Part shown: piece by piece, positions 3,001 through 6,754 of the stretch
Position numbering within the stretch: the first letter of the stretch is position 1
Layout: every line of letters begins with the position of its first letter
Sequence record: PQ493298
Source of the DNA: Escherichia phage EPIMAM01
Length of the DNA: 64,000 nucleotides
Reading direction: 5' to 3' (one strand)
The notes under the pieces: generated by a model
What the model saw: only the letters and a program-made list of their open reading frames with translations
Database searches by the model: none
Told to the model about the DNA's origin: nothing
Program-made: the position numbers and the translations under genes

Positions 3001-4005
3001 TTAACTTACCAATTCAATCCAAGCCGGACGAAGTACATCTTGTACCATTTTAACTAATTCCTTCTTAATCAAAGAAGGATTATCCGCTTGAGTTAGAGTA
3101 ATACCTTCACGAGAAGTTTCTTCCAAAATATCTTGAACCGTTAGTCCCATCACCTTTCCAAAATCTTTTGGACCGATTTCGCCAATTTTAGAAATAACGT
3201 TATTTACTCGGTTCAGTGTAACGTAACAAGCTAAAATTCCAACCAATTTGTTATCAGCTTCTGACAGTTCAACTTTAGCTTTAATAGGCTTATCAGACTT
3301 TTTCTTTTCACTAAATTTAGAGTTCTTGCATTTGATAGCTACGCGATTGCCATTAGGCATCCAAGAAGGATAACAAGGTTTCAATACATATCCTTCAGCG
3401 GTAAATACTTCGCCTTTTACTTCAGCATTCCAAACGCATTTATTCGCATCAACTAATCCAGCATGGTCTACTGTAAAATTATAATCTTGGACGACAGAAT
3501 CTAAATCATTTGGCAATTTAATAAGCTCTTCAAATTTACCGCGACCTAAAAGTGGAGCCATTTTAAATTTAAATGTATTACAGAATGATTCCATCATATA
3601 ATCATCGACATAAGTCACATCACCACTTTCTGTAGTAACAATAATGTCAAATACATAAAAATCTTTATCGCCATAATCGACATTCTTCTGAATGCCAGGT
3701 CCGGCAAATTCACCGAAGACTTGATAAGATACAACCGCTGAAGTTTCCATAATATCTTGTACTGCTTTAATGGAATCAGCGTAATTCTTCAAAATAATTT
3801 CATACCCAAAGAAATCTTCAGCAGGAAGAATAGGACCAGTGCGTTTAGCACAAGTTACTTTATCACGCTCAATAATTAATGAGAAATTTGTGCCATGAAT
3901 CTTTTCACGAGCTACCCAATCGCCGCCAGTCAATCCTAAACTATAAAGTTTTTCAATGAATTTAGAATTGTAATGATTTTCAAGACTGCTATACTTTTTA
4001 AACAT
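3001..4005 (-). CDS. rnlB: RNA ligase 2 (Rnl2)
   Basis: 334 aa; N-terminus [42 protein letters not shown] carries the ligase KxHGxN motif; position after gene 24 as in T4. Confidence 0.9.
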
Positions 4006-4014
4006 AATTAATCC

Positions 4015-4293
4015 TCAAAATGTAATTTCTAACCAATCACCATCACGCTGATCACTATTGACTTTAAAGCTAAATCCTTCTTTTCTCAGCCAATCACCAA
4101 TTTCTTCAGTAATCAATTTATCGCGAGCAGTACAATAATAACTAAAATATGTTTTACCTTGTTCAGCTGCTTTATTAGCAAGTTCCGAAAAATCTTTAAT
4201 AAAACACTCTAGCTTAAACTGTTTACTTTTAAGTGCTTTTTCGCGTAATCGATTAGCAAAAGATTCATTTTCATAAAGATCATACTGTTCCAT
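4015..4293 (-). CDS. hypothetical protein (T4 24.2 position)
   Basis: 92 aa ORF, translationally coupled, synteny only. Confidence 0.5.
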   Translation of the reverse strand: MEQYDLYENESFANRLREKALKSKQFKLECFIKDFSELANKAAEQGKTYFSYYCTARDKLITEEIGDWLRKEGFSFKVNSDQRDGDWLEITF

Positions 4294-4296
4294 TTT

Positions 4297-4494
4297 TCAC
4301 CTTTTATTAATATGTCTTTTTCTATAGACAACTTTTTCTCGAGTTTCAAATTTATTCTTAGCAGTCATAGCTCGAGCCCATAATACAGCCACTTCTTTCA
4401 CCTGTAAGTTTAATTCACGAGCAATTTCAATGAATGACTTTCCAGACTCATGAAGAGTAAACACCACAACCTCAGTTCTCATAATCAATCTCAT
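4297..4494 (-). CDS. hypothetical small basic protein (T4 24.3 position)
   Basis: 65 aa ORF, basic C-terminus; synteny only. Confidence 0.45.
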   Translation of the reverse strand: MRLIMRTEVVVFTLHESGKSFIEIARELNLQVKEVAVLWARAMTAKNKFETREKVVYRKRHINKR

Positions 4495-4563
4495 GTTATC
4501 GAGTTGATGCCATTATATACATCATTTTCTGAGTATGTTTTGTGTGCTTTCAAAATGAAGAAA

Positions 4564-4577
4564 GGGGCCGAAGCCCC
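4564..4577 (-). terminator. terminator hairpin 3' of hoc
   Basis: GGGGC-CGAA-GCCCC stem-loop just downstream of hoc stop on minus strand. Confidence 0.55.
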
Positions 4578-4589
4578 TTATGATTATGA

Positions 4590-6014
4590 TTATGGATAGG
4601 TATAGATGATACCAGTTTCTAAAGCAGTTTTATGAATGATGTATCCATTGCGTGATTCTTGAACATCAACTTCTGGATAGTCTTTCATCATCTTCTGAAG
4701 AGTGTAACGATGCAGGTAGTATTTACTGTCTGGATCTTCAGTTTTCCAATCTTTACCTTCTTCGGTCATTTTTTGGATTTCATCCATAACCCACCAACCG
4801 CACCAGATATAAGCAGAAGTACGATGTGGAAGAGGATGAACATAAGGCAATTCACCTTCTGGTTCCGGAGCAACTTTATCAGTTACCTGAACTTGGCCTG
4901 TTGCTTTAACTGTTTTACTATCATAGTCGGTTGCTGTAACGACAGCAGTAACTTCAATAGTTTGACTTCCAATAGATGAGGTGTCAACGGTGTATACGTT
5001 AGTTGACCCTTCTACAGGAGAAGAATCTTTCTTCCATGAATAAGTAATTTGTGCTGCTTCAGGTGCTCCAGTAACATTAGCCGTAAATGTAGCCGAAGCA
5101 TCTTGCTGAACGTTAATAGAAGGAGGAGTCAATGTAACCTGTGGATTCATTGTCTTCTTATTAACTGTCAATGATACTTCATTAGAAGTAACTTCCTTTT
5201 CATTGTAATTTTCTGCAGTTACTTGCGCTACACATTTAATTCTTTTTACTCCACTTGTAGTTGGAGTATAGTTAAATGTAGAGTTAGTTTCTCCACCAAT
5301 TTGAGAATCATCTACATACCACTTATATGTAGCAGACGCTCCATCAGGTTGAGAAGCTAAGGCAGCAGTAAATTGAACTGGAGTTCCAATTACTCCAGCT
5401 GAAGGACTATTAGGAGTTACAACTAAAGTAGTCGCTTGGGTTTTCTTGTTAACAGTCAGCGACACTTCGTCAGAAGTAACGGTCTTTGTATCATAATCTG
5501 TCGCAGTTACTTGAGCTACACACTTAATTTTTTTAACTCCGCTTGTGGCAGGAGTATAGTTAAATGTAGCGTCAGTTGCTTCTCCCACAGGAGAACCGTC
5601 GACGTGCCATTGATACGTAGCAGATGCACCTGGCGGCTGTGAATCTAAGGCAGCGGTAAATTGAACAGCTGTTCCGATTACTCCTTCCGAAGGACTATCA
5701 GGAGTTACTGTTATTGTAGTAGTCTGTGTCTTATTTTGAACTGTGATAGTTGTCGTAGTTTCTGCTGTTTCAGGTTCAGCTTCAGATTCTGGAACTGTAT
5801 TTGTTGCAACTACTTTAATAGTCTTTTGACCTGCAGGTCCTTTTAGTACATAGCTAAAAGTTGCTTCAGCTCCATCCTGTGGAACATTATCTACACTCCA
5901 AGCATAGGTAATAGTTCCACCTTCAGTTTGACCACTGGGTGTAGCAGTAAACTGCTTGGTTTCATCAATAACTCCTGTTGGGGTTTTAGGAGTTATATCA
6001 ACTGTAAAAGTCAT
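4590..6014 (-). CDS. hoc: Hoc, highly immunogenic outer capsid protein, with four Ig-like domains
   Basis: 474 aa; N-terminus MTFTVDITPKTPTGVIDETKQFTATPSG and C-terminal capsid-binding region match recalled T4 Hoc (376 aa); about 98 aa longer because of an extra Ig-like domain. Confidence 0.9.
   Translation of the reverse strand: MTFTVDITPKTPTGVIDETKQFTATPSGQTEGGTITYAWSVDNVPQDGAEATFSYVLKGPAGQKTIKVVATNTVPESEAEPETAETTTTITVQNKTQTTTITVTPDSPSEGVIGTAVQFTAALDSQPPGASATYQWHVDGSPVGEATDATFNYTPATSGVKKIKCVAQVTATDYDTKTVTSDEVSLTVNKKTQATTLVVTPNSPSAGVIGTPVQFTAALASQPDGASATYKWYVDDSQIGGETNSTFNYTPTTSGVKRIKCVAQVTAENYNEKEVTSNEVSLTVNKKTMNPQVTLTPPSINVQQDASATFTANVTGAPEAAQITYSWKKDSSPVEGSTNVYTVDTSSIGSQTIEVTAVVTATDYDSKTVKATGQVQVTDKVAPEPEGELPYVHPLPHRTSAYIWCGWWVMDEIQKMTEEGKDWKTEDPDSKYYLHRYTLQKMMKDYPEVDVQESRNGYIIHKTALETGIIYTYP
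5154..5729 (-). repeat. diverged tandem duplication (2 x ~288 bp) encoding Hoc Ig-like domains 2 and 3
   Basis: translated repeats TQTTTITVTPDSPSEGVIGTAVQFTAAL... and TQATTLVVTPNSPSAGVIGTPVQFTAAL... are about 80 percent identical over 96 aa. Confidence 0.8.
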
Positions 6015-6023
6015 AAGTTATCC

Positions 6024-6704
6024 TTATTTTAATGTTACGAAAGAAGAATTACGTGTTTCACGAATTAGAACTGATCCGTCGCGATTAATGTAATAAATTA
6101 AGCTAAATAAAGTTTGGTGCGCCGACGCGTGTTCAAAACTAGTTGGGTGAGATTTCCAATCCGGAGTTTCAGCAATCCATTGGTAAATCCACCAAGGAAC
6201 AGTGCAGAATCCTGGATTTTTTCCAATCAGCTGAAGATTTGGGCTAAAGTTTTCCGGAAGAGTAAATACAGACGGCTTTTCAGATTCAATAATCTCAGCT
6301 ACAGCCTGTTCGAATTTTTCTTCAACAAAAGGAGTATCTTCAATCAAAACATCGGTATTTTCAGGAATTTTATCCGTTTCTACTACTTTAATTTTAATGT
6401 CAGATTTAACCGGAGAATCAATCAGAAGTGCTGCCTCTGGATTGACTTCTTCATCGTCATATTTTAATCCGTCTGCGGCATCAGCAGCATCGATTAAGTC
6501 TTTAATAGATAACCCATCAGTCTCTGGCATAGGTTCACTAGCGAGCTTCTGGAGGGCTTCTTCAATATCATTAACGATATTATCAAAAGATTTATTCTTT
6601 TTGACCTTTATACCAAACTGTTCAGCATATTCAGCTAATTTAGCTTTAGCTTCTTTATTATCATCAAGAGCCTTCAGCTCTGCAATATAATCTTTATCTA
6701 TCAT
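6024..6704 (-). CDS. inh: Inh, inhibitor of prohead protease gp21 (acidic protein)
   Basis: 226 aa acidic ORF between hoc and uvsW, the T4 inh position; assignment by synteny and size. Confidence 0.7.
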   Translation of the reverse strand: MIDKDYIAELKALDDNKEAKAKLAEYAEQFGIKVKKNKSFDNIVNDIEEALQKLASEPMPETDGLSIKDLIDAADAADGLKYDDEEVNPEAALLIDSPVKSDIKIKVVETDKIPENTDVLIEDTPFVEEKFEQAVAEIIESEKPSVFTLPENFSPNLQLIGKNPGFCTVPWWIYQWIAETPDWKSHPTSFEHASAHQTLFSLIYYINRDGSVLIRETRNSSFVTLK

Positions 6705-6717
6705 AATATTTCCTCAG

Positions 6718-6725
6718 TATAAATA
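6718..6725 (+). promoter_or_regulatory. T4 late promoter TATAAATA upstream of uvsW
   Basis: exact TATAAATA about 30 nt upstream of uvsW ATG in the divergent inh/uvsW intergenic region. Confidence 0.55.
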
Positions 6726-6754
6726 TAGATATATTTATTACATGGTATTTAGAC

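Follow-up and report, generated by a model that had tools for sequence, protein, structure and literature searches.

Hoc is the basis of the phage-adherence-to-mucus model and the main display scaffold of T4 nanoparticle vaccines, and most work on the protein assumes the three-Ig form found in T4. In T4 every gp23* hexamer carries a single Hoc molecule at its centre, and the phage can grow without the protein; the capsid-binding domain at the C-terminus has been solved on gp23* hexamers (PDB 5vf3/8t1x), and the capsid bears 155 fibres of 180 Å with four domains (PMC10385173). That the number of Ig-like domains varies is already published: it differs among 650 Hoc homologues, with up to 10, in Serratia phage Muldoon (PMC10385173), PNJ-9 Hoc is without D3 (PMC11853027), and that of Klebsiella phage PMBT63 contains a further Ig-like domain compared with T4 (PMC13435897). 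The Hoc proteins of RB49 (PDB 3SHS), Muldoon and PNJ-9 resemble the protein studied here, going by their literature descriptions, in that a conserved capsid-binding domain carries several Ig-like domains strung together; their sequences are distant, RB49 Hoc being reported as ~22% identical to that of T4 (PMC10385173; PMC11853027). The literature that we searched, with partial coverage, gave no explicit description of a 472/474-aa Hoc class in Tequatrovirus, of chimeric alleles or of unequal crossover in hoc.

We analysed a 64,000-nt stretch of Escherichia phage EPIMAM01 (PQ493298), referred to below as the window. Its hoc coding sequence occupies 4590–6014 on the minus strand (ORF list) and specifies 474 aa plus a stop codon at 4590–4592, against 376 aa for T4 Hoc (PDB chain 5vf3_Z and NC_000866), so that both lengths given in the original prediction, made from the letters of the window, were right. 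In a phmmer search of PDB sequences T4 Hoc (5vf3_Z) matched the window protein over its full length (E = 3.8e-217), but the alignment came in two pieces, pairing query residues 1–109 with T4 1–107 and query residues 192–474 with T4 94–376; about 96 residues, roughly aa 96–191, are therefore without a T4 counterpart. The T4 protein (376 aa; PDB 5VF3, 8T1X, 8T9R; NP_049793) is the product of the same gene, which in T4 too lies between 24.3 and inh. Window ORFs at 3001–4005, 4015–4293, 4297–4494, 4590–6014 and 6024–6704, all on the minus strand, agree with the T4 annotation, the gene order rnlB–24.2–24.3–hoc–inh–uvsW is the same in T4, and Pfam labels at homologous loci agree with the order from rnlB to inh. 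A consensus scan placed a GC hairpin with a T-run behind it, resembling a terminator, at 4562–4579 (minus strand), 11 nt past the hoc stop, and phage OE5505 has a terminator annotated at the equivalent position. The T4 late-promoter motif (TATAAATA) was absent from the minus strand in the sequence immediately upstream of hoc and of inh, and a scan for sigma-70 promoters gave matches at chance level.

All parts of the protein are encoded on the minus strand. The first Ig-like domain (D1, aa 1–95, 5730–6014) aligns to T4 residues 1–93 and is two residues longer than T4 D1 (PESEAEPE versus SEGGPE). Two D2-like Ig/PKD modules follow, which are the copies of the repeat: m1 (aa 96–191, 5442–5729), of alpha type and without a T4 equivalent, and m2 (aa 192–287, 5154–5441), of beta type and closest to T4 D2. 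The third Ig-like domain (D3, aa 288–383, 4866–5153) is matched by Pfam Ig_3 at 291–357 and by I-set at 291–376, and the capsid-binding domain at the C-terminus (aa 384–474, 4593–4865) shares 97.8% amino acid identity with T4 286–376. The best Pfam stretches are Ig_2 at 109–180 and BiPBP_C at 129–167 in m1, and PKD at 197–269 in m2; the bit scores (cut-offs in brackets) of PKD, 38.6 (23.5), Ig_3, 30.5 (30), I-set, 25.0 (23.7), and BiPBP_C, 30.2 (26.8), all pass. Amino acid identity to T4 is 77% for m1 against D2, 86.5% (87.5% at the nucleotide level) for m2 against D2 and 87.5% for D3, and D1, m1/m2 and D3 are related to one another at ~30–42% pairwise identity.

Structure prediction agrees with these boundaries. 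An AlphaFold2 model, for which 41 Hoc sequences gave a shallow alignment, has four separate beta domains over residues 1–380 with a pLDDT of ~90 or more (block means mostly 85–96); by part, the pLDDT is 85–93 in the D1 strands, 92–96 in m1 and 39–60, hence of low confidence, in the C-terminal domain. One strand pattern is shared by m1 and m2 in this model. The best Foldseek matches in the PDB are four-Ig fragments, namely the N-terminal part of Dscam1, ICAM-5 D1–D4 and Sidekick-2 Ig1–4 (E ~1e-13, probability 1.0), with low TM-scores (0.15–0.25 for the whole model) that reflect differences in inter-domain angle. Sequence and model together thus indicate that window Hoc is built as D1-m1-m2-D3 on a capsid-binding domain, compared with D1-D2-D3 in T4, the difference being one extra D2-type module (m1) and a D1 longer by 2 aa. 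The four Ig-like domains of the original prediction are upheld by Pfam, the AlphaFold2 model and Foldseek alike, its capsid-binding C-terminus by the identity to T4, and the alignment to T4 that it had named as a check returned three Ig-like domains for T4, not the same count.

A direct-repeat search detected the pair as two adjacent 288-nt copies at 5152–5439 and 5440–5727, 75% identical at a spacing of 288 nt; in codon register these become m2 and m1 at the coordinates given above, tandem, of equal length, in frame and free of gaps. The residues assigned to the two modules by the original prediction (96–191 and 192–287, at 5154–5729) match exactly, although its identity of about 80% was slightly high: the tandem likeness is real, at 71 of 96 residues (74%) and 75.3% of nucleotides. 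When m1 was compared without gaps to 18,204 other 288-nt windows of the 64 kb, identity averaged 25.8% (sd 2.9, maximum 38.9%), so the observed value corresponds to z = 17 and excludes a chance resemblance. With no more than two copies, 75% identical, the m1/m2 pair went unreported by Tandem Repeats Finder. Differences between the modules are enriched in the loops of the model (15 of 40 non-strand against 10 of 56 strand positions, Fisher p = 0.036).

The divergence of the two copies speaks to their age. By the Nei-Gojobori method m1 and m2 differ at a dS of 0.96 and a dN of 0.17 (ratio ~0.17), with 58% identity at third positions, while the window and T4 differ at a dS of 0.22 in D1, 0.31 between m2 and T4 D2, and 0.38 in D3 plus the C-terminus. 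The synonymous divergence of the pair is 2.5 to 4 times that between the window and T4 in the same gene, and the paralogues must therefore have split well before the hoc alleles of window and T4; the low dN/dS shows that selection maintains both copies. We also clustered 162 D2-type modules cut from 118 Hoc proteins, which are 90%-identity cluster representatives from a single homology search. Window m1 fell into one cluster with 28 of 29 first modules of four-Ig proteins and 8 of 8 of five-Ig proteins, and window m2 into another with 26 of 29 second modules of four-Ig proteins. The modules group by position and not by genome, as an old duplication predicts. These comparisons show m1 and m2 to be old paralogues under purifying selection and no fresh duplication.

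The allele is also widespread. Its closest relatives, at 99.7% nucleotide identity over hoc, are in Shigella phage Sf21, Escherichia phages REP2 and REP3 and Yersinia phages PYps32T and PYps47T, followed at 98.2–98.6% by wV7, O157 typing phage 7 and AR1; all of these have the same 1425-nt, 474-aa, four-Ig layout as the window, with m1 99.7–100% and m2 100% identical and only a few point differences. At the nucleotide level m1 is 100% identical in AR1, wV7, O157 typing phage 7, ES26 and ESh32; a search with m1 returned 13 records at 99% or above and a next best of just 90%, whereas m2 matched 561 phage records. Beyond hoc the window reaches at most about 97% identity to any single record across its first 25 kb. 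For an estimate of prevalence, 60 records were drawn at even steps from the 656 phage records with a match; in these, hoc spanned 1419–1425 nt in 23, 1131–1137 nt in 29 and 1704 nt in 1, the rest being partial matches; the four-Ig layout is thus carried by ~38% of matching phage records in this sample. Allele lengths step by whole units, at 1131/1137, 1419/1425 and 1704/1713 nt, or 376/378, 472/474 and 568/570 aa. Given this prevalence and these length classes, the four-Ig form is a major Tequatrovirus allele class and no oddity of this genome. Within Tequatrovirus hoc has a standing polymorphism in length, its alleles having 3, 4 or 5 Ig modules. The protein is known and so is the window allele, whose extra module is real but neither recent nor unusual.

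Two other readings of the repeat have to be set against these data. A D2 duplication within this phage lineage, its copies only starting to diverge, would account for modules that are exactly tandem, in frame and equal in length without a single indel, and it is how the original prediction had described the pair. We consider it most improbable, since near-identical synonymous sites, and copies that are sisters relative to their orthologues, would be expected of such an event, and what was found is a dS of 0.96 with clustering by position; each copy has same-position orthologues in ~29 other four-Ig protein clusters, and a layout present in ~38% of matching records likewise speaks against it, as well as against any distinctiveness of this Hoc. 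That the repeat is an assembly artefact, mis-assembled or falsely expanded, can be given practically no credence, having nothing in its favour but the risk common to all repeats: m1 and m2 differ at 25% of positions, so that reads place uniquely, and the same gene occurs at 98–99.7% identity in the independently sequenced Sf21, REP2/3, PYps32T/47T, wV7, AR1, typing phage 7 and ESh32.

Loss of one module of the pair has also left traces. The sample contains nine Hoc proteins of 378 aa, and every one has the 95-aa D1 of the window and a single module that is m1-like N-terminally and m2-like C-terminally, with switch points after module residues 11–14, 21–28, 54–60 or 67–76; in P0088 and P0098 there is an additional m2-like patch. 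One of these proteins, P0065, shows 0 mismatches to the window protein with one module deleted, and its gene on ERZ16268256 scaffold_29 differs from the corresponding chimera of the window at 1 of 1137 nt, the switch falling after module nt 160–179. The hoc genes of Escherichia phage OE5505 and Shigella phage ESh25 are respectively 6 and 16 of 1137 nt away from such a chimera (one of the 16 within the module), with switches after module nt 54–59 and 21–30. Nucleotide patterns read site by site reveal one clean m1-to-m2 switch in each of the three, which keep the flanking domains of the window but have one module fewer, with an m1 head and an m2 tail. The crossover interval of ERZ16268256 coincides with the longest in-register run of identity between the modules, the 19 nt CTACATTTAACTATACTCC (module nt 161–179; 5551–5569 in m1 and 5263–5281 in m2, minus strand). 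At least four crossover points can be distinguished in this way, and up to six if intervals known from protein only are included. The 472-aa lineage has its own examples, the 376-aa proteins P0070, P0114/P0117 and P0059 being near-exact chimeras of P0035, P0012 and P0026 (3–5 mismatches). The direction of change is from four Ig domains to three, because deletion by misaligned recombination yields only an m1 head with an m2 tail, and because a pair that is 25% diverged could not be restored by duplication of a chimeric module. The four-Ig allele of the window has thus contracted several times in nature via misaligned recombination between m1 and m2. The neighbouring homing endonuclease gene segE was considered for a link to contraction and set aside, as ESh25 has segE while OE5505 and ERZ16268256 are without it, giving no consistent association.

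Evidence for change in the other direction is less direct. Five-Ig alleles (568–570 aa) are present in Escherichia phages UGKSEcP1 and UGKSEcP2 and, by a 1704-nt match, in CCU7; their D1, D3 and C-terminal domain are like those of the window, with three 96-aa D2-type modules between. We tried to rebuild the five-Ig alleles by expansion from one or two of the sampled four-Ig proteins, but the best chimeras still had 14–37 aa mismatches. Expansion would be expected to leave the reciprocal hybrid, with an m2 head and an m1 tail, as the middle unit; in UGKSEcP2 this unit resembles m2 over most of its length and m1 in some segments. Five-Ig alleles probably arise by the reciprocal of contraction. 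The original prediction had further proposed the repeats as a substrate for expansion or contraction; contraction, which of all its proposals has the best support, is borne out by the natural single-crossover deletion alleles, and expansion only indirectly, as five-Ig alleles exist but are not derivable from the sampled four-Ig proteins. The T4 D2 module was itself tried as a contraction product and rejected, the best chimera having 27 mismatches. It combines a beta-type core with an alpha-type tail, and this mosaic indicates that in-register recombination also shuffles D2 modules. The modules are so heavily mosaic that no residues other than 47, 50 and 51 separate m1-type from m2-type by position in every allele, three residues being too few for fine mapping.

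Two histories that start from three-Ig parents deserve consideration. The 378-aa chimeras could be in-register recombinants of D1-m1-D3 and D1-m2-D3 parents and not deletions from a four-Ig gene. T-even phages do recombine very frequently, and choosing 378-aa proteins fixes the 95-aa D1 flank and so biases the left side of the module to m1, but we find this account improbable: nine of nine alleles have the m1-head/m2-tail arrangement, the sole orientation possible by deletion, ERZ16268256 lies only 1 nt in 1137 from the window chimera with flanks 98.8% identical across 3 kb upstream, and pure three-Ig parents were not found, whereas the four-Ig parent is present in 13 records. A second possibility concerns the pair itself, which might have been formed on co-infection, when out-of-register recombination joined an alpha-type and a beta-type three-Ig allele at the TVNKKT/TVQNKT boundary. 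Single-module alleles occur with either core, alpha-type in 58 cases and beta-type in 15 (T4 included), each window module has single-module alleles that resemble it more (up to 94% aa) than its partner does (74%), and the domain boundaries share a short similarity (TVQNKTQ, TVNKKTQ, TVNKKTM). Yet the closest single-module relatives are m1/m2 chimeras and not pure parents, no pure m1 single module turned up as the m1 search dropped directly from its 13 records at 99% or above to 90%, and the boundary homology extends over only a few nucleotides, which leads us to regard such a joining as unlikely. This reading concerns only how the pair arose and does not conflict with contraction as a mechanism.

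Our preferred account, which we hold to be very probably correct as a whole, is that of a four-Ig hoc allele class with old paralogous modules, in which misaligned recombination changes module number. Each gp23 hexamer would have one Hoc anchored at its centre through the C-terminal domain, and the string of Ig-like domains, here D1-m1-m2-D3, would project outward. Tandem in-frame 288-nt modules with short identical runs could misalign in homologous recombination, and a crossover between m1 and m2 would then delete exactly one module and leave a three-Ig gene whose single module has the head of m1 and the tail of m2, while the reciprocal exchange would lead to five-Ig alleles. A comparable duplication is found in Klebsiella phages: a scan of viral contigs returned Hoc proteins of 471–472 aa with four Ig-like modules in phage Marfa and a related contig, whose relatives have three-Ig and two-Ig versions. 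They share a tandem Ig duplication with the window but are only ~50% identical to it, and the duplicated pair (58–78% identical between copies) is D3-like, not D2, so that the same process has acted independently on another module.

As regards function, it is reasonable to infer that the fibre would be longer than that of T4 by one Ig domain, or roughly 45 Å. In PNJ-9 Hoc, residues S183/L184/T185 of D2 are needed for binding to MUC2, and these residues are conserved in PNJ-6 (PMC11853027). We located them, in PNJ-6 Hoc, as the SLT of a module-ending EVSLTVNKK motif, and the SLT of this motif occurs twice in window Hoc, at 185–187 and 281–283. The additional module may thus plausibly bring a second copy of the D2 surface, SLT included, as a putative binding surface. 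A bolder proposal, which we advance as a doubtful one, is that the length polymorphism in D2 modules switches rapidly under selection and does not merely turn over neutrally. Were it true, unequal recombination between old, diverged modules would let otherwise near-identical phages toggle between three-, four- and five-Ig fibres, and the switching would adjust both the reach of the fibre and how many D2 glycan-binding surfaces it presents (two SLT motifs in the window protein) to different mucosal environments, or might instead aid escape from anti-Hoc antibody; the polymorphism of the D3 duplication in Klebsiella phages would then be convergent evidence of selection on fibre length.

These results are relevant to comparisons of mucus adherence among therapeutic phages, to the design of Hoc fusions and to annotation, as about four in ten sequenced Tequatrovirus genomes have a four-Ig fibre and module number shifts by simple unequal crossover. 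The general understanding of Hoc is unchanged, and the interest of the locus, which is modest, is as clear natural evidence of unequal recombination changing the number of modules in the protein.

Relatedness to other phages differs along the window. For positions 1-25000 the closest phage record, PYps47T, reaches only 96.9% identity, whereas hoc alone is 99.7% identical to several phage records, a mosaic relatedness typical of T-even phages. The surroundings of the gene also differ between phages. Both T4 (5058-5675 of its retrieved locus) and ESh25 (144-761 of its locus) carry the homing endonuclease gene segE between inh and uvsW, while the window phage lacks segE at this site in the immediate neighbourhood of hoc, its inh-uvsW gap being only 50 nt (6705-6754). 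Among the genomes compared, no consistent association was observed between the presence of segE and the loss of a hoc module. On the other side of hoc, 11 nt past the stop codon (minus strand, 4562-4579), there is a strong GC hairpin, AAGGGGCTTCGGCCCCTT, with a T-run after it; this element fits a terminator at the end of the inh-hoc late transcript.

Apparently disrupted hoc reading frames occur in several public genomes. In the three-Ig contraction allele of Escherichia phage vB_EcoM_OE5505 (MK373785.1; 1501-2637 of the retrieved locus), codon 226 is an in-frame stop, and two CDSs are annotated for this gene; the product may be a truncated Hoc without the capsid-binding domain, or else a sequencing error in the record may be responsible. 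Two CDSs are likewise annotated in SfPhi01 (hoc span of 1420 nt), Ec_YwIITB1 (1430 nt), vb_GEC_SH_GT (1420 nt) and ACG-C40 (1132 nt), all of which deviate by at least 1 nt from the usual span classes. The off-class spans together with the split CDSs suggest either frameshifts in a dispensable hoc or homopolymer sequencing errors. Some Hoc proteins, the homology search hits P0012 and P0078, are filed under bacteria (Shigella sonnei, Salmonella enterica) and labelled 'endonuclease', apparently because annotations were carried over and bacterial assemblies were contaminated with phage.

Klebsiella T4-like phages have a four-Ig Hoc of their own, found at 1001-2416 of the locus from Klebsiella phage Marfa (MN044033.1) and at 1001-2419 of a related contig. 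Here the tandem-duplicated module is D3-like, and its copies are 58-78% identical. Relatives with three-Ig and two-Ig versions are present among the records, and match spans for this type of hoc are approximately 1358-1416, 1076-1134 and 794 nt.

In the window Hoc, pairwise local alignments of D1, m1/m2 and D3 (4866-6014) gave approximately 30-42% mutual identity. The entire Ig string appears to have arisen through serial tandem duplication, of which m1/m2 would be the youngest pair.
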